Source: a virus
Lineage: Duplodnaviria > Caudoviricetes
IMG/VR virus record: IMGVR_UViG_3300021426_000089
Coordinates: 4,126-68,125 of that record
Length of the DNA: 64,000 nucleotides
Direction: 5' to 3' (one strand)
Both the position numbers and the translations under genes were made by a program. Positions 1,845 to 29,109 of the stretch are shown piece by piece; within the stretch, counting starts at the first letter, position 1; the number at the start of each line of letters is the position of its first letter. The notes under the pieces were generated by a model, which had not been told where the DNA came from, did not search any database, and saw only the letters and a list, made by a program, of their open reading frames with translations.

Positions 1845-2907
1845 ATGGAACTGAACACAGTATATCTTGGCGATGCCGTAGAAGTCCTGCGCACCTTTCC
1901 TGATGAGAGCATCGACTGCTGTGTGACAAGTCCACCATATTTCGGTCTGCGAGACTACGGCAGTAGCGGCCAAATCGGACTGGAGCAAACGCCGGAAGCA
2001 TACATCGAAAAACTGGTAGAAGTCTTTGCGGAAGTTCGTCGCTGCCTGAAAAAAGACGGAACGCTTTGGGTGAACATCGGAGATACCTATGCAACGGGAA
2101 CAGCGGCCCGCCGTCAGCAGTCGAAGAATCCCGGAGTTGGAGCCAATAACGAGAAGGCGCAGAACTCCGTGCCGCGTGTTGGAACTCCCGGCGGATGCAA
2201 GACAAAGGACCTGATTGGCATTCCGTGGATGCTGGCATTTGCTCTACGTGCTGATGGCTGGTACTTGCGTCAGGATATTATCTGGGCCAAGCCAAATCCG
2301 ATGCCGGAACCAGTTACGGATCGCTGCGTAAAAAGCCACGAATACATCTTCCTGCTGTCGAAGTCGGAGAGATACTATTTCGACTATGAGGCTATTCAGG
2401 AGGAGGCCGTTACGCAGGTTGATCGCCGTGTCGGTCAGCGCGTAACCTATGACGGGAAGCGAAAAGGTCAGGCCGGAACCGGGAACCGTTCCTTCGTATC
2501 GCTGAAAACAAAACATCGTTTCGGAGGTTCAAAGTATGGCGATAAGATGGATGCTCACTACGCCAGATATTCTGGCCACGCCTATTCTCCACAGTTGGTT
2601 GATGATGTTGTTGTCCGCAACAAACGTGATGTATGGACCATCACAACGAAGTCAAACAAAGAAGCGCACTTCGCTACATTCCCGGAGGACTTGATAACCC
2701 CTTGTATATTAGCGAGTTGTAAACGGGGGGGGGGTAGTACTTGACCCGTTTATTGGTAGTGGTACTACTGGTATAGTCGCTCGTAATCTTGGCTGCTCTT
2801 ATGTAGGAATCGAACTGAATCCAGAGTATCAGGAACTCGCTATGCGACGAATATTCAACAAGGCAGAAAACTTATTTAATCAGCAATGGCAGAACCCAGA
2901 CTTATAG
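1845..2907 (+). pseudogene. Beta-class N4-C/N6-A DNA methyltransferase frameshifted at a G10 tract (phase OFF; G9 gives 353 aa)
   Basis: VTSPPYFGLRDY (motif IV) and DIIWAKPNPMPE in frame to the stop at 2744; SAM-binding VLDPFIGSGTT...GIELNPEY lies in the +1 frame after G10 (2725-2734) and ends at TAG 2907. Confidence 0.9.
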
Positions 2908-3131
2908 GCGAAATCATCGACGAGATTCTGGCCGACCTTCGGGAATTACAACAACGATATGAGGCCGACTGCGGCGATGTAATACTCACCTGTAAAGAAG
3001 CCGCTTCCTATATCGGGAAAACGCCACAGACTATATCCTCCTACATCGCACAGGGGAGGCTGCACAAAGTCAGCAACGGCGTTAAAGTCGGCATATCAAA
3101 AATAGAACTCCAGAAACTTATCAAAGAGTAA
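2886..3131 (+). CDS. Excisionase-like HTH DNA-binding protein
   Basis: LTCKEAASYIGKTPQTISSYIAQGRL Xis/MerR-type HTH pattern. Confidence 0.7.
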   Translation: MAEPRLIGEIIDEILADLRELQQRYEADCGDVILTCKEAASYIGKTPQTISSYIAQGRLHKVSNGVKVGISKIELQKLIKE

Positions 3132-3392: not shown

Positions 3393-4184
3393 ATGGCTAA
3401 AAAAGAAACGACCGCCGCAGCAGCGGCCCCGGTCTCGGATCCGAGCAATCCGAACCTCAAAATCTTCAACTTTGCCCGGGTCGTCCCCGATGTGGCGAAG
3501 AAAGAAATCAAGGCTGGTAAGCTGAAAGGCTATACCAACATCAATCCGCAGTGGCGACTGGAGAAGCTGACTGAATTGTTCGGCCCCGTCGGTTTTGGCT
3601 GGGTTATCGACAACATTAAGTACTGGACCAGTGAAGGAGTTGGCGAATGCGTGATGTGGTGCAGCCTTGACCTTAAAATCTTCTGGAACGGTGCGTGGTC
3701 GCAGCCCATCAACGGCATCGGCGGCAGCAAGCTCTACGGAAAGGGTCAGGGCGATGGCATCAACGATGAAGCCTGCAAGATGGCCCAGACTGATGCCATC
3801 AGCGTCGCCTGTAAGAACCTCGGATTCGCCAGCGACATCTACTACGGCTTGGACGACACCAAGTATCGCGCAGGACAAGAGGATTTCGGCTGGGGTAAGA
3901 ACTTCCCCACGCCTCCTCCGGGACCGGGCGTTGCACCTGCTCCTGCACCCCAGCAACAGTACGCTGCTCCCGCACCTCAACAGCAGCAGGCCGCTCCAGT
4001 TGCTCCGGCTCCCGCGGCACAGCCGGGACAAATCAATCTGGAGCAGGCAATCCAACTCGCGACAAACGCCCAGTCCTCTGACGAACTGGTCCGCATCTGG
4101 AACGACTTCAAGAAAGTGTATGGCCAGAACACCGAGTTCAAGAAGGCTATCAGTAACAATCCTAACAATCCGTCACGGCGATGA
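3393..4184 (+). CDS. Rad52/Sak-like single-strand annealing protein
   Basis: INPQWRLEKLTELFGPVGFGW and ACKMAQTDAISVACKNLGFASDIY core; P/Q/A-rich linker. Confidence 0.7.
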   Translation: MAKKETTAAAAAPVSDPSNPNLKIFNFARVVPDVAKKEIKAGKLKGYTNINPQWRLEKLTELFGPVGFGWVIDNIKYWTSEGVGECVMWCSLDLKIFWNGAWSQPINGIGGSKLYGKGQGDGINDEACKMAQTDAISVACKNLGFASDIYYGLDDTKYRAGQEDFGWGKNFPTPPPGPGVAPAPAPQQQYAAPAPQQQQAAPVAPAPAAQPGQINLEQAIQLATNAQSSDELVRIWNDFKKVYGQNTEFKKAISNNPNNPSRR

Positions 4185-22242: not shown

Positions 22243-22874
22243 TTCCTGAATAGATTATATGATAAAGAGAAACTGCCGACAACGCCGTGCCACTGCAGTC
22301 CGTTGTTATATCCCCAGTTGTAACTGATTCCGGGCCTGAACTGCCACCTTCCGCTCCAGACGTTTAATTCAAGTCCGGCTCCTACAGACAACACATTCGC
22401 GCCAACGAATCCGCTCACGACTGGTGAAAACGACCACTTCGGAGGGTATAGCTCCGGCACTGGCACAATCTTCGTCTCTTGGTAGCTCTTATGCCAAAGC
22501 ATCTTGCTGGCATAGCCCTCAACCAAACACTCGTATGTCTTGTTATCCGTGAACGTGGTCTGATTGATAGGGACAGCGATGTATGTCGTGTCGTGAATAG
22601 TCACAAGCGCGGGCTTCCGCTCCAATGAATCACGGTATGCGGCCAGTATCGCATCGTAAACGAGAATGGTCCCGGCTGGAACCAACTCGAATCCTGCCGG
22701 GATTTCTGCCTGCTGCGGCTTATAGTCAACGATAGTGTCGCGGATGTAGGTTGTGTCCCTCTGCGGCGGAACAGGCTCAATTTTGGCCGTTTTTCGGCCA
22801 GTGAGAAACCCGGTCCCAAACAGGAGCAACAACACGCCAAGACAGATGGCGACATTCTTCAACGTCTTTACCAT
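22239..22874 (-). CDS. Membrane-anchored lysis-associated (spanin-like) protein
   Basis: N-terminal TM, RDT repeats, beta-rich C-terminus; follows the endolysin. Confidence 0.5.
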   Translation of the reverse strand: MVKTLKNVAICLGVLLLLFGTGFLTGRKTAKIEPVPPQRDTTYIRDTIVDYKPQQAEIPAGFELVPAGTILVYDAILAAYRDSLERKPALVTIHDTTYIAVPINQTTFTDNKTYECLVEGYASKMLWHKSYQETKIVPVPELYPPKWSFSPVVSGFVGANVLSVGAGLELNVWSGRWQFRPGISYNWGYNNGLQWHGVVGSFSLSYNLFRK

Positions 22875-23431
22875 ACAATCTCCTCCCCGTTGGCCTTGAC
22901 CAGCCTATGAAAGCCGAAACTCTCCCACCTCCGCAACCATCCGTTCAGGAACTTTTCGTTGTTGCCTTTCTTCGCAATCTGGAGCAGAGCCGATGCCCGC
23001 TCCGCCTTAATGCGGTTGAAGGTGTAAACTGGCTTGTAGCTGGCCGTGGATTTGTTCAGGGCGGCAAGGGTTACAGGACCGACGACACCATCCTGTTTCA
23101 GACCGAGAGCGGCCTGCACAGATTTGATTGCCGTTTTCACACCGCTGCCCCAGCCCCAGTTCACGCAGATATTGGCAATACCCTGCGACAGGATGTTGTC
23201 AGCCTGCCACGGATCCCAGTACATCGTTTTCATAATGTCGAGCCATTCCTGATCCGTGATGCGTTTGAGGTCGGCCACCGTCGGGGCTTTCTTCCCCTTC
23301 CGCCTGCAGTAGTCGGTGTAGGTGGAAATGGTGATTCCTTTCATCGTTGCGCCACCCCTGTCGTCAGGGTCATTGGCAAAGCCCCCCTCCCAACTCTGGA
23401 TGAAGGGGGCCAAAATCTTAATATTCGCCAT
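22868..23431 (-). CDS. Endolysin, glycoside hydrolase family 108 with PG-binding domain
   Basis: WEGGFANDPDDRGGATMKGIT catalytic motif; DGVVGPVT; KFLNGWLRR. Confidence 0.9.
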   Translation of the reverse strand: MANIKILAPFIQSWEGGFANDPDDRGGATMKGITISTYTDYCRRKGKKAPTVADLKRITDQEWLDIMKTMYWDPWQADNILSQGIANICVNWGWGSGVKTAIKSVQAALGLKQDGVVGPVTLAALNKSTASYKPVYTFNRIKAERASALLQIAKKGNNEKFLNGWLRRWESFGFHRLVKANGEEIVW

Positions 23432-23915
23432 CGTCAGTGCCGTTGTTTTGAGGCAGACCTTCCTCGTTCCTCGCCGAGTGAATGCGGATGAGTTCGGCCA
23501 AGTCCTCTTTGGTAATTAACTTGCTGATGAGTTCCGCCGCCTTCTCCTGCTGCTTCTTCGTCTTGGTATCGGCCTTCTCCCTCACGCTCATAAACTCAAC
23601 GATAAGGAGGAACAAGCCAACGAGCAGGGAAACAACAGGGACTCCGACAAGAATATTCACTCCGATGAGGGTGTAGAACTTGCAGAAATGGACGAACACA
23701 TCGGCCATCGTTGCAATCATCAGCCCGCCTTCATACGAAATGAACTTTGTCAGGGTGCGGCGTAAGGCTTCGCTGGTGCGCAGTTCACCGCGTTGCTTTG
23801 CTTTGTACAGGCCAGCGCCGAGGTCGATAATCATTGCCGCGAGGACAAAGAACATAACAACCACTGCGATCTGGAACATCTGGCCAGTGTCAATGAATAG
23901 GTTTTCCATCATCAT
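23418..23915 (-). CDS. Holin
   Basis: Three TM segments, SEALRRTLTK, EFMSVREK; directly upstream of the lysin. Confidence 0.75.
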   Translation of the reverse strand: MMMENLFIDTGQMFQIAVVVMFFVLAAMIIDLGAGLYKAKQRGELRTSEALRRTLTKFISYEGGLMIATMADVFVHFCKFYTLIGVNILVGVPVVSLLVGLFLLIVEFMSVREKADTKTKKQQEKAAELISKLITKEDLAELIRIHSARNEEGLPQNNGTDDGEY

Positions 23916-25391: not shown

Positions 25392-25739
25392 CTATGCGTT
25401 ATCCAGTTCCAGTACTACGGCAGTGGCCACCTCCTTTGCCGTGGCCCGCCACTCCTGAAACTTCTCGAACTCACGGGCGTGAGCCTCTGTGTCGGAGCCG
25501 TTGGCAAGGATGGCTTCAACGGCATCGGCAGAATACTTGTCACGGACAATGGCCGACACGATGCTGCCGTAGTCAATGCTTTTCACATCAACGTTTTCGC
25601 AGGTCAGGACCTCAACCGTCCCGCCTTCCATTTCCTTCTCCTCCAACGCAAAATCGAAGAAGATGCGGGTGATAACACCCTCACGCAGGACTTCCAGTTC
25701 AGGAACGTCGCCGCCAAGATAGTCACGATATACTTTCAT
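25392..25739 (-). CDS. Conserved protein downstream of the DGR RT
   Basis: YGSIVSAIVRDKYSADAVEAILAN...FQEWRATAK. Confidence 0.65.
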   Translation of the reverse strand: MKVYRDYLGGDVPELEVLREGVITRIFFDFALEEKEMEGGTVEVLTCENVDVKSIDYGSIVSAIVRDKYSADAVEAILANGSDTEAHAREFEKFQEWRATAKEVATAVVLELDNA

Positions 25740-25751
25740 AATGATAAAGGT

Positions 25752-26399
25752 TTATAAGTCAACAAATTGGTAGGAAGTCTTTCCGCTGCCGAGGTCTTTT
25801 CGCTTGATGGCCACTCCCGATACCGGGAAAATCTCTTTGCCCTGCGACTCCAGATCCGAGCACTGGTCCAGCACATCCTTTATGCTATGAGAGTTGGTGA
25901 TGAATTTCACCTTCTCCCCACTGTGCTTCAACTCCACCAAGACCACGTACCTATCGTTGTTCTTCTTCGCGTGGTCCTTGATGTCGGTCGTGTCAATATT
26001 GCTTTGGAAGTCAAGAACCGTCAACTCCGTATTGATGATGTCCGAAAGCTGAACCTGACGCACGTCAAAGAACTTCTTCCCGTCCTTCAACGTGCCTCTT
26101 ACCGTCTTGATTCCTTTGTCTGCAAATCCCATATCTTTTCCTGTTACTTTCTTCCAGAGGTGGCGGCATCTGCCATACATACACCAGCCTCTATAACTAT
26201 CGTCTATTTCTCTTATTCGTCTCCGGCTCTTTACCCGCTGCCGGGACGCTATAAACCGCTTCTTGATGCTTTTTCGCAGCCTCATATTCTCGCGACTGAA
26301 CTCATACCCGAGAAAGTCAATGCTGCGACCTATGTCCTCTCTGCCTCCACCTTTTCTTCTTTTTCTTTCCATAGTGGCGTAACGGTGCGTAAAAACCAC
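25752..26399 (-). CDS. DGR RT segment 3 (IDFLGY motif 7 + thumb) fused to a ~125-aa extra domain
   Basis: SIDFLGYEF, RGWCMYGRCRHLWKKV, then MGFADKG... in the same frame with no stop; internal ATG at 26372. Confidence 0.85.
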   Translation of the reverse strand: MVFTHRYATMERKRRKGGGREDIGRSIDFLGYEFSRENMRLRKSIKKRFIASRQRVKSRRRIREIDDSYRGWCMYGRCRHLWKKVTGKDMGFADKGIKTVRGTLKDGKKFFDVRQVQLSDIINTELTVLDFQSNIDTTDIKDHAKKNNDRYVVLVELKHSGEKVKFITNSHSIKDVLDQCSDLESQGKEIFPVSGVAIKRKDLGSGKTSYQFVDL

Positions 26400-26628
26400 T
26401 TGACTTTACAACCAAGCCCCTCGCCTCCGCCAATTCATCGTACTTATTCAGAAGGAAACGGGCCTCGGCCTTACTCCGGGACAACATCACCATATCATCG
26501 CAGTTGCGATGCAGCTTGGCGTGATACTTCTCCGTGAGGATGTGGTCAATCTCATTGTGGTTGAGGTTTCCGATCATCCCGCTTATGTAAGCGCCAATTC
26601 GTACACCTCTCCTTCTTTGCTCTTTCAT
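26317..26628 (-). CDS. DGR RT segment 2 (motifs 4-6, NCDD)
   Basis: GVRIGAYISGMIGNL and HRNCDDMVML. Confidence 0.85.
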   Translation of the reverse strand: MKEQRRRGVRIGAYISGMIGNLNHNEIDHILTEKYHAKLHRNCDDMVMLSRSKAEARFLLNKYDELAEARGLVVKSSGFYAPLRHYGKKKKKRWRQRGHRSQH

Positions 26629-27205
26629 CTGCTAAAGCCTGTTCAATTTCATCACCGCTGTCGTAATCCAGTACGCAAATCTTCATCAGTGTTATGAACT
26701 TCTCGTCCTTGAACTTGTGCCGAAGCGCTCGCTCCAAATACTCCGGGCTGATGCTCTGGTAATATTTTTTGCAGTCGCTTTGGGAGAACCAGTTGTAGTG
26801 CGGGTTGCGACGAAGAATCCGCTTCACGCGCTTTACTCCATACAAACAACCTCTACCCTTGATGCAGCAAGAAGTATCTGCAATCAGCGTCTTGTTCACT
26901 ATCGGCTCTATCACCTGCACTATGGCGTGGCTCATAATCTTCCACGGCATATAATCCTCATCATCCAAGTCCCGAATCTTGCCCTTGTCAGCCTTCCGTT
27001 TCAGCTTCCGGCTGTGATGGGGCGGGAACTCCAGCGACAGAATCATCTTCTGCAGATTATCTATCTGATTCTCGGCATCTGCATTAAAGTCGCGGATCTG
27101 CTTGCTGCGTTTGGCCTTTCCTCCTCGCTGGGATTTCTTCACCGCCCGCCTCAAATTGTCCTTATCCGCAATCTGCTCCAGTATGTAACCTACTTTCTTC
27201 GTCAT
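26552..27205 (-). CDS. DGR RT segment 1 (motifs 0-3)
   Basis: NLRRAVKKSQRGGK, GKIRDL, HAIVQVIEP, IKGRG, SDCKKYYQSI. Confidence 0.9.
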   Translation of the reverse strand: MTKKVGYILEQIADKDNLRRAVKKSQRGGKAKRSKQIRDFNADAENQIDNLQKMILSLEFPPHHSRKLKRKADKGKIRDLDDEDYMPWKIMSHAIVQVIEPIVNKTLIADTSCCIKGRGCLYGVKRVKRILRRNPHYNWFSQSDCKKYYQSISPEYLERALRHKFKDEKFITLMKICVLDYDSGDEIEQALADERAKKERCTNWRLHKRDDRKPQPQ

Positions 27206-27505
27206 ACATCTTGTTACTTAATTCACTGCAGGAAGTCCTGCATATATGAATCCGCCCGAAGCGTTGGACCCCTGCCCGGCCTTCCTCACGGCGGCAGAAA
27301 CAAAGTGCCGCACACTGGAGTCTATGCCATTAGCAGGACCTACATTAGCCTCGCTTACTCACCCCTACAACTGGGTGGCCTTTCCGCATTCGATATGTTT
27401 TGACAACGCCATCACCGCATTTCTGCCCGATGGGGTCAAGGTTGAGGGGACTCGCTGCCCGGTATTTATCCGGGAGAACGAAACAGGGTTTCTTTCACAT
27501 TGTAT

Positions 27506-27613
27506 GACGCGCCCCGATGTTCGAGTTCGTGTTCGACCAAGCGTTGTTCGAGTTAGCGTAGAACGGACCCGAGTTCGCCCCGTTATTCGAGTTACCACCG
27601 ACCAACAGGACCT
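27506..27613 (-). repeat. DGR template repeat (TR), 108 bp
   Basis: 98/108 identical to the VR; 10 AAY codons in the VR-equivalent frame. Confidence 0.97.
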
Positions 27614-27792: not shown

Positions 27793-29109
27793 CTACAAGT
27801 CGCGACCGTCAACGAACTGGACTTGGCCGTAATACGCAGGACGCGCCCCGATGATCGAGGTCGTGGGCGACCAAGCGTTGCCCGAGTCAGCGTAGAACGG
27901 ACCCGAGTACGCCCCGAAATTCGAGTTACCACCGACCAACAGGACCTGTCCCGTATTGTTGCCATAGTAGTAGTCACTCCAAGCGTAGTTGCTACCTCCG
28001 TTCAGAGTCTTGGCAAAGATGTCAAAGTCAGCACCTTTGAGCATTGCGCGGACGTAGCCACTGGTCGTCTGGCGTACCAGCTGGCGGAACTTACCGCTCG
28101 GGTGCGAGGCCAGTTCGGAAGAAGAAGGCATCCTGTTACCTTCGTAGAGGAAGATTTCTGTTCCGTCCTGATCGTTGTTCGCGGAATTGCCGAAGAAGCA
28201 GCCCTGAATGAACTCCCACTGCGCATTCCAGAAGTCCTCGACACCAAGCACAGAAACGTGGCAGGAATCGGCCTGTGCATCGGCATCGGAGATAGCGACG
28301 CTACCAGTGGCATCGCCCAGTCCCTTCGTCTTGCCCGTGAGTTTGAGGACGGCGCTGGCCAGAGTCTTGTCCCAAGCAACACCAGCGCTTCCGCCGACAC
28401 CCTGACCGATGCTGGCCTGAATGTTGGCATTGCCGTTGCTTTCGCAGAGGCACATCATCGCGATCCACTTCCAAACATTGACATTTGTCAGGCCCCAGTT
28501 TGCGCCGAAGCTCTGGGCCGCATTCCAGTAGCCGTTGATGCTCTTGGAACTGGTGTCGAAGTTGACATCACTCCGGCTCACCAGCTTGCCGCCGGAGATA
28601 GAGCCTTTGTATGCGCCAACGACAATGTACTGGTTGTTTCCGGCGTTGGCCAGATAGTGCTCGCTGATCGGCTGCTGGCTCAACCACAGGTACGGAATGC
28701 TGGTCTCTGCGTCCAGCAGGTACAGGAAATAGAGCCGAGGACCGATAACGACAACGCTGCCCCGGCTTTCGTCAAGGACAGTACCATCAGCGAAGATGGC
28801 GGAGTTGTTGGGATGCAGCTTCGCGGCACGGCCATTGGCATCCATCAGGTAGCGGCCCACCTGCGCTTTGTAGGCGGCATAGGCCGACAGGTTGCCAACC
28901 ATTCCCCACGCCGGGTTGGTCTGGAGCTCATCCTTGATAGGGATGCCCCACGCCACCTCGTGCAGGAGTTCGGTCTGGCCCTCGTTGATTGATTCAAGGA
29001 ACTCCTCAACAGTGATGCGGCGGACACTGCCACCGGCCTCAACGATTACGGAGTTCGATTTGGTTAGCGAATGAACTTGCGTCGCAGAACCAAGATTCTT
29101 ATTTGCCAT
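27793..29109 (-). CDS. DGR target: virion/tail-associated protein with C-terminal CLec-type variable domain
   Basis: C-terminal VLLVGG...IGAR VR; located in the tail-tip block. Confidence 0.9.
   Translation of the reverse strand: MANKNLGSATQVHSLTKSNSVIVEAGGSVRRITVEEFLESINEGQTELLHEVAWGIPIKDELQTNPAWGMVGNLSAYAAYKAQVGRYLMDANGRAAKLHPNNSAIFADGTVLDESRGSVVVIGPRLYFLYLLDAETSIPYLWLSQQPISEHYLANAGNNQYIVVGAYKGSISGGKLVSRSDVNFDTSSKSINGYWNAAQSFGANWGLTNVNVWKWIAMMCLCESNGNANIQASIGQGVGGSAGVAWDKTLASAVLKLTGKTKGLGDATGSVAISDADAQADSCHVSVLGVEDFWNAQWEFIQGCFFGNSANNDQDGTEIFLYEGNRMPSSSELASHPSGKFRQLVRQTTSGYVRAMLKGADFDIFAKTLNGGSNYAWSDYYYGNNTGQVLLVGGNSNFGAYSGPFYADSGNAWSPTTSIIGARPAYYGQVQFVDGRDL
27840..27947 (-). repeat. DGR variable repeat (VR), 108 bp
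   Basis: All 10 differences from the TR are at TR adenines; 7 Asn codons changed to F,Y,D,G,P,T,I. Confidence 0.97.

Follow-up and report, generated by a model that had tools for sequence, protein, structure and literature searches.

A putative nucleic-acid-binding domain carried by the reverse transcriptase of an Avd-less phage diversity-generating retroelement

How does the reverse transcriptase (RT) of a diversity-generating retroelement (DGR) work in a phage that appears to encode no Avd? What is known of the DGR RT mechanism comes entirely from the bRT-Avd complex of one Bordetella phage, and a large share of gut-phage DGRs, including those of Hankyphage, LoVEphage and the Quimby-like phages, are without Avd. 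The question is raised here by 64,000 nt of DNA from a virus of the Caudoviricetes (positions 4,126 to 68,125 of IMG/VR record IMGVR_UViG_3300021426_000089; hereafter the window), which forms part of a complete 68,125-bp virus record (CheckV 100%) and in which the thumb of a DGR RT runs on, in frame, into an additional C-terminal domain. An original prediction, made by a model from the letters of the window, had proposed this domain and/or the nearby gene at 25392-25739 as a non-homologous accessory factor. Our results make the domain a credible accessory factor of this kind, because no Avd was detected, the family occurs in fused and split forms, its charge is basic and its predicted fold is a barrel resembling the oligonucleotide/oligosaccharide-binding (OB) fold; they do not support the gene in that role.

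That the domain is a nucleic-acid-binding accessory module for an Avd-less RT clade appears well supported by the sequence comparisons reported here. We lean, by a little, towards a more specific proposal, namely that this module acts as a scaffold for cDNA synthesis and stands in for Avd, a leaning that also takes in the general claim of an accessory role. The candidate helper of Avd-less DGRs would then be a small, basic, predicted β-barrel, built into the RT or made from a gene just downstream of it.

A domain family fused to, or split from, DGR-type reverse transcriptases

The domain lies in the last of three overlapping open reading frames (ORFs) over which the RT of the window is divided.

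25755-26132, minus strand: C-terminal domain, 126 aa, of the phrog_19665 family (E 7.6e-14), with a predicted OB-like barrel (AlphaFold model)
25752-26399, minus strand: RT ORF C, 215 aa from a GTG, comprising motif 7, the thumb and the C-terminal domain

As had been read from the sequence in the original prediction, a domain of about 125 aa opens with MGFADKG directly in frame after the thumb (..HLWKKVTGKD); it corresponds to ORF C residues 91-215, and its stop codon occupies 25752-25754. The accompanying claim of a fusion to the RT needs an amendment, in that the domain is indeed continuous with motif 7 and the thumb, but the RT consists of three ORFs and the fusion is to ORF C only.

Sequence comparison shows the domain to be a real conserved family, with some members attached to DGR-type RTs and others encoded apart from them. 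The copy in the window matches phrog_19665, a family annotated as being of unknown function (PHROG family entry), over profile positions 11-104 of 105, and the same family is matched by 46 of the 46 members of alignment A2 (best E 2.3e-44). When a 16-sequence profile (A1) was run against 1.84 billion proteins, 244 representative clusters were retrieved at E<=1e-3, 127 of them at E<=1e-10. The best 150 of the 244 representatives include 25 single-frame proteins of RT plus domain (430-583 aa), 17 proteins of thumb plus domain, the ORF C type, and 45 that are apparently stand-alone (~100-110 aa). One 109-aa protein from locus L058 (P0066) was rejected as a stand-alone form, being a gene-call artefact of an ORF C-type frame. 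The profile search for split and fused homologues that had been proposed along with the original prediction has in this way recovered both, within the phrog_19665 family.

A small stand-alone gene following the RT had also been mentioned in that prediction, and such genes exist. Downstream of their RT, L053, L055, L056, L057, L072-74 and L075-76 each encode a homologue of 98-109 aa (hmmsearch E 1e-14 to 1e-15 for those of L053, L055 and L056). These genes start at the stop codon of a complete RT or just past it, in many cases overlapping the RT gene by 17 nt, the exception being L075/L076, where a 110-aa ORF stands between the RT and the stand-alone gene. The module thus comes in three forms: as an extension of the thumb in a single-frame RT, as part of the thumb-bearing third frame of a divided RT (the case of the window), or as the product of its own gene of ~100 aa. 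In fused forms the domain opens with a conserved methionine, the counterpart of the position where the stand-alone genes begin.

These arrangements are spread over several kinds of phage. The fused form is found in phages of unrelated background (L050-52, L063, L066, L069 and Hankyphage), and L072, a Mu-like phage other than Hankyphage, has the split form, an RT followed by a 105-aa gene. In Hankyphage (Bacteroides phage p00; jmh43_hp, PV107405.1) a member of the same family is fused past the thumb (RT residues 327-434, E 1.2e-42), and the order of target, template repeat (TR), RT and small acidic gene is that of the window; unlike the window RT, however, that of Hankyphage is read in one frame (434 aa), and the phage backbone is Mu-like. 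The Hankyphage DGR is active in culture (bioRxiv 10.1101/2024.08.07.606950). In every context that could be read with upstream DNA available, a DGR-type RT adjoins or carries the domain.

That the module works together with the RT is indicated most strongly by this pattern of fusion and fission. Two loci that keep the domain without the RT core, L045 and L046, were considered as a sign of an RT-independent role and rejected as such: a recent, clean deletion of ~1.09 kb spans the RT from near its start to mid-thumb, and the flanks are 97.5-99.9% identical to L005 (in L045 the decayed-relative locus lies at 3427-4001). Megablast of the window cassette and of L072 against the phage collection gave no match, the relatives being seen at the protein level only.

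Small proteins of 123-158 aa are also encoded beside RTs of the split-form clade, at 3440-3820 of L072, 2259-3005 of L053, and 2556-3029 and 4179-4571 of L054. They share a W-x-P-D-W ... K-W-Y-P-W-F ... S-R-L-C-F pattern and could represent either small targets of the DGR or a further linked family.

An element without a detectable Avd

Around the RT, the element is composed of the following parts.

27793-29109, minus strand: DGR target gene, an ORF of 438 aa encoding a tail protein (phrog_5302 'tail protein', E 2.8e-35), with the variable repeat at its 3' end
27840-27947, minus strand: variable repeat (VR), a 108-nt direct repeat 91% identical to the TR
27506-27613, minus strand: TR, a 108-nt repeat with 24 adenines, 179 nt past the target stop
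27206-27505, minus strand: TR-RT spacer, a probable cis-acting DGR RNA segment, with conserved blocks and a hairpin with covarying arms (alignment A9)

The cassette is coded on the minus strand in the order target, TR, spacer, RT, and in related loci the RT is preceded by a syntenic homologue of the target. The VR falls within the last ~50 codons of the target. Over 108 nt the TR and VR differ at 10 positions, and 10/10 of these are TR adenines changed in the VR, because of which we take the DGR to have been active in the past. With an adenine-only TR/VR pair and a DGR / group II-like RT next to the TR, we regard the element as a working phage DGR that lacks Avd and is of the Quimbyvirus/LoVEphage type. 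It resembles the DGR of BPP-1 (mtd-avd-TR-brt) in diversifying a tail protein by adenine-specific mutagenesis from a TR and in having a spacer between TR and RT, which in BPP-1 is structured RNA. Conserved blocks run through the window's spacer in alignment A9 (GCGGAAAGG ... CAAGCGGTGTTAGTAGG ... CTCCGGGC), and the arms of its hairpin show compensatory changes between loci in the same alignment. To judge from this conservation, the spacer is likely to be a cis-acting DGR RNA element analogous to the BPP-1 spacer.

Is there room for an Avd gene? The original prediction gave the distance between the target stop and the TR as 180 bp, too short for avd in its usual position, and reported none elsewhere. 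We measure 179 nt from the target stop (TAG, 27793-27795) to the TR and 300 nt from the TR to the RT start, and the ORFs inside these two gaps are only antisense frames or read-throughs of the TR. The second statement holds for the whole genome, as a six-frame search of the 68,125-bp record with the Avd profiles PF05635 and TIGR02436 found none at E<=1. Nor was PF05635 found in five complete related phage genomes, which cover the fused, frameshifted and split forms, and the gene tables of the related contexts that were fetched record no Avd Pfam hit.

An earlier survey has described elements of this general kind. Avd-less DGR lineages (Architecture A/E, Lineage 3/3A) are restricted to Bacteroides and its relatives, and ~20% of DGR RTs have C-terminal extensions that reach up to ~150 aa past the thumb and contain no identifiable motif (Wu 2018). 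The window element fits this description of an Avd-less DGR with a post-thumb extension, although Wu 2018 did not define the extension as a family, note a stand-alone form or assign a fold. The MutS_I-like extensions of Wu 2018 are distinct from the window domain, since no MutS_I match was obtained with ORF C at E<=0.1 or with the 46 domain members at E<=1. The three-frame RT and the Avd-less lineages are therefore already published, and the extension has been noted in the literature but never defined. In a literature search, no paper came up that connects DGRs with an OB-fold domain of the RT or gives the fold of this domain.

Predicted fold and candidate roles of the domain

An AlphaFold model of the domain, computed with a 46-sequence alignment, has a predicted local distance difference test score (pLDDT) of 82.4, exceeding 90 in the core, and the topology β1-β2-β3-α-β4-β5, with strands at residues 36-46, 61-68, 74-79, 104-115 and 118-125 and the helix at 82-96. 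This predicted model, with five long strands, one long helix and a 4-residue turn at 29-32, does not match the all-helical four-helix bundle of Avd-type proteins. The predicted fold of the domain is therefore a five-stranded, OB-like barrel with a single helix. On the surface of the domain, R61, K76 and T79/N80 (domain numbering) are conserved. Its best structural match is the single-stranded DNA-binding protein (SSB) P12 of PRD1 (PDB 9gfq; Z 5.5, rmsd 3.3, 90 of 117 residues aligned, 14% identity), and the exhaustive VIA-align list consists almost entirely of OB-fold single-stranded DNA (ssDNA) binders, among them Rim1, bacterial SSB and PriB, all of them weak matches (Z <=5.9). In BFVD, homologous RTs (E 2.8e-8) are followed by many phage 'ssDNA binding proteins' (E ~1e-3), and in the nearest ESM-Atlas clusters (0.95) 13-27% of members are Phi29_Phage_SSB. 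The SSBs of protein-primed phages (PRD1 P12 and the phi29-type PF17427) share with the predicted domain a length of ~110-125 aa and a barrel with one helix; they differ in serving DNA replication, whereas the window family is tied to RTs, and sequence comparison does not place the domain among them. Rows for DUF4252 and for a de novo TIM barrel in the domain profile searches were dismissed as noise. The family is basic, with a median isoelectric point (pI) of 8.68 and a pI >7.5 in 35 of 46 members.

These features can be set against the one DGR RT whose mechanism is understood. The BPP-1 bRT is inactive without Avd and lacks an extra nucleic-acid-binding subdomain; the Avd pentamer contacts the N-terminal extension of the RT and an RNA stem-loop and positions the template-primer duplex, and a long 'thumb ring' of single-stranded RNA wraps the base of the thumb (bioRxiv 10.1101/2023.10.23.563531). 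Avd in BPP-1 is a separate, basic, pentameric four-helix bundle and bRT has no domain past the thumb, whereas in the window no Avd was detected and a predicted β-barrel follows the thumb. If the model is right, a basic OB-like barrel mounted on the thumb would be well placed to grip single-stranded RNA or the emerging cDNA. We propose that the module, sitting next to the thumb, binds a single-stranded segment of the DGR RNA or the nascent cDNA and that the bound module would thereby hold the template-primer in the active site, which would be the scaffolding job that the Avd pentamer performs for bRT in BPP-1. Both the binding of nucleic acid by the domain and its substitution for Avd are steps that we infer from fold, charge and genomic context. 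The conserved blocks and covarying hairpin of the TR-RT spacer could be its RNA partner. A complex prediction for the RT of the split-form locus L072 (A5) with its stand-alone partner (A6) scored 0.00, below the mark, and is evidence neither way.

Several observations weigh against this proposal. The structural Z of 5.5 is below the level at which the tool itself places trust (~8), and a Foldseek search of the first domain model against the PDB returned nothing at E<=1e-3, the weak rows being mostly OB folds. No Pfam hit was obtained for the 46 domain members at E<=1, PF17427 included; the PF17427 (Phi29_Phage_SSB) profile found nothing in the genome at E<=10; and the domain profile had no meaningful match among PDB sequences. 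Because there is no sequence match to Pfam or PDB families and the scores are weak, the OB fold is a prediction from one model. OB folds, moreover, also mediate protein-protein contacts. As to Avd, these proteins are poorly conserved (Wu 2018), so that a very divergent one could escape hidden Markov models, and ~29% of catalogued DGRs are without any accessory gene (Wu 2018), so that a substitute may be unneeded. In L054, which has a related RT, neither the OB gene nor Avd was detected.

The same structural neighbours also bear on a different moment in the reaction. They are the ssDNA-binding proteins of protein-primed phages, organelles and bacteria, the nearest Atlas clusters carry Phi29_Phage_SSB, the family is basic, and the domain is positioned after the thumb, the site at which, in RTs of group II introns, the DNA-binding domain follows. 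It is possible, though we think it unlikely, that the module acts after synthesis, coating or protecting single-stranded cDNA in the manner of an SSB, or that a tethered or partner OB-like module would capture the nascent strand and deliver or anneal it to the VR in retrohoming. The fold matches are weak, however, and an OB fold fails to tell RNA binding from DNA binding; one OB domain tethered to an RT cannot coat a cDNA of ~100 nt cooperatively as free SSBs do; and a post-synthesis role leaves unexplained how this RT clade makes cDNA without Avd. To our knowledge, the mechanism of DGR retrohoming is not known, and no protein factor for it has been identified in any DGR. Were the module to handle cDNA rather than RNA, it would open this step to study and could matter for engineered DGR mutagenesis tools, and the capture and delivery of cDNA would set the Avd-less clade apart by mechanism, as a DGR type of its own and not a version of BPP-1 in which the scaffold has been exchanged. 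In B. thetaiotaomicron, lysogens of Hankyphage are genetically tractable and sequencing of the VR reports on their DGR activity, which makes the hypothesis of an accessory role directly testable.

The conserved methionine at the domain start of the fused forms, with its counterpart at the start of the stand-alone genes, and an ATG in the +1 frame upstream of the junction between ORFs B and C, kept in all loci examined, would also suit a separate product. Since OB folds are known as protein-binding modules, the domain could in principle be an adaptor or regulator between proteins with no role on nucleic acid, an alternative that we regard as decidedly unlikely. It might serve oligomerisation, dock the RT to a host replication or repair factor, or, made separately from the conserved internal methionine or the conserved ORF C ATG, control RT activity. 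The basic charge of the family and neighbour lists dominated by SSBs instead favour nucleic-acid binding, and no partner protein is conserved beside the domain across phage backgrounds.

There remains the second candidate of the original prediction, the small acidic gene that follows the RT.

25392-25739, minus strand: g115, an acidic gene of 115 aa (pI 4.35) that follows the RT and keeps synteny with the target, g385 and g93 in all related phages

This gene had been described as conserved, and it is, although with the tail module rather than with the RT. It follows the RT in all Quimby/LoVEphage-like loci, where the downstream genes are conserved too, and its homologues also follow single-frame genes of RT plus domain in L050, L058 and L063. 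In L077 (4678-5001), a g115 homologue comes directly after a target and an AAC-rich TR-like repeat on a 16-kb contig with no RT, and g115 is absent from the split-form loci L057 and L072. No Pfam family was matched by g115; its Atlas pointers are to XkdW or DUF4376 (0.85-0.87), a lead only. In Hankyphage-type loci, an acidic DUF4376 protein of 153-161 aa takes the place of g115. The gene labelled 'Avd' in Hankyphage (L080 = PV107405.1, 4025-4510) encodes such a protein (161 aa, pI 4.99, profile E 1.1e-77), which has no match to an Avd profile; the label derives from position and size. This DUF4376 gene may be the CH1 of Wu 2018, a protein of 160-169 aa and pI 4.7 found only in Avd-less DGRs of Bacteroides relatives; g115 is similarly acidic but, at 115 aa, shorter.

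DUF4376- and XkdW-like proteins usually have tail-fibre genes as neighbours, and because of this the order of fibre, TR, RT and small gene is the one expected if a TR-RT unit had been inserted between a fibre gene and that gene's helper. In the simplest reading, the g115-type and DUF4376 genes are tail-module genes, with the TR-RT unit sitting between them and the fibre gene, and g115 is probably a tail-module gene rather than DGR machinery. It is not supported as a DGR accessory gene, being kept without an RT in L077 and missing from L057 and L072. That these acidic genes are the real Avd substitute and the domain is secondary, as could be argued from the g115 family after RT plus domain in Quimby-like loci, L050, L058 and L063, from the DUF4376 family in the same place in L066, L069 and Hankyphage, and from the restriction of CH1 to Avd-less DGRs, is very unlikely, given that no relationship between the two families could be detected (hhalign E 0.13 and 0.31, not significant), that neither follows the RT in L057 or L072, that g115 persists beside a target and TR-like repeat where the RT is lacking, that the gene order has the explanation just given, and that both families are acidic whereas Avd is basic.

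In L075, an acidic 110-aa ORF at 1275-1607 bears a weak, collinear resemblance to the g115 family; the comparison is not significant (hhalign E 0.003, probability 11%), and neither is that of g115 with a 116-aa ORF of L057 (E 0.14).

The three-frame reverse transcriptase

The catalytic part of the RT lies upstream of ORF C, in two further ORFs joined at two candidate shift sites.

26552-27205, minus strand: RT ORF A, 217 aa, N-terminal extension and fingers (RVT_1 profile positions 20-103; phrog_1423 RT, E 6.9e-36)
26317-26628, minus strand: RT ORF B, 103 aa, containing the palm with its catalytic motif NCDD and, after it, a basic K/R tract (RVT_1 profile positions 116-185; phrog_1423, E 3e-11)
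26605-26611, minus strand: candidate first +1 shift site, GAG-AGG-T, where the +1-frame GGT opens G-V-R-I-G
26328-26334, minus strand: candidate second +1 shift site, CAT-AGG-T, where the +1-frame GGT opens G-R-S-I-D-F-L-G-Y

The RT is split over these three overlapping ORFs (A, B and C), each in the +1 frame relative to the previous one. Begun at the conserved ATG at 26372, ORF C would have 206 aa, and its gene-caller homologues have 203-206 aa. In this arrangement the C-terminal domain, always continuous with motif 7 and the thumb, is joined to the catalytic core only after two frameshifts. Tblastn against 55 related viral contigs shows the A-B-C pattern, each step +1, in ~45 loci and down to 38-50% aa identity, and in distant relatives (~30% identity) the RT is in a single frame. 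In the relatives P0030 and P0035, B and C share one frame and the basic insert is lacking.

A three-frame RT with two proposed programmed frameshifts has been published for Quimbyvirus (Benler 2021, Microbiome 9:78, PMC8008677), and the arrangement in the window is a DGR RT of this type. Quimbyvirus ('Quimbyviridae') shares the layout of tail-module target, TR and RT, although neither the C-terminal domain nor the lack of Avd is mentioned in that paper (Benler 2021, PMC8008677). Bacteroides phage LoVEphage (MW660583.1) has the same gene order and an ORF C 50% identical to that of the window, but its record labels the RT pieces hypothetical, with 'No HHsearch hits'. The window phage is a more distant member of this group; its identity is 83-85% with L002/L003 and ~50% with the LoVEphage group.

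Where do the frames change? The zero-frame sequence is xAG-AGG-N (or CGG) at either junction, and the next conserved motif begins with the GGN codon of the +1 frame; this motif is G-V/L-P-I-G for the first junction and G-R-x-I-D/N-F-L-G-Y for the second. A zero-frame AGG is present in 13 of 14 distinct sequences of the first junction, and AGG or CGG in 12 of 13 of the second. From these alignments, the shifts would appear to be located at 26605-26611 and 26328-26334. A start codon in the +1 frame is conserved 8-20 codons upstream of each junction; before junction 2 it is ATG in all loci examined, and before junction 1 it is ATG, or TTG in L047/L048. Because these +1-frame start codons are conserved upstream of both junctions, it is possible that the RT is made as three separately initiated polypeptides instead of through two +1 frameshifts. 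A sequencing error or pseudogene was rejected as the cause of the frame changes, the same +1/+1 pattern being present in ~45 loci down to 38% identity, and transcriptional slippage was rejected as a general cause, as A-runs are not conserved at the junctions; junction 1 of the window has no A-run longer than 3. Two variants of the pattern were seen: in L006, B and C are fused via an A8 run, and L040/L041 have a third shift inside ORF B.

Further along the minus strand, just downstream of the tail genes, lies a probable lysis module (22868-23431 and 23418-23915), in which a 187-aa ORF has the sequence pattern of a Glyco_hydro_108/PG_binding-type endolysin and is preceded by an ORF for a membrane protein.

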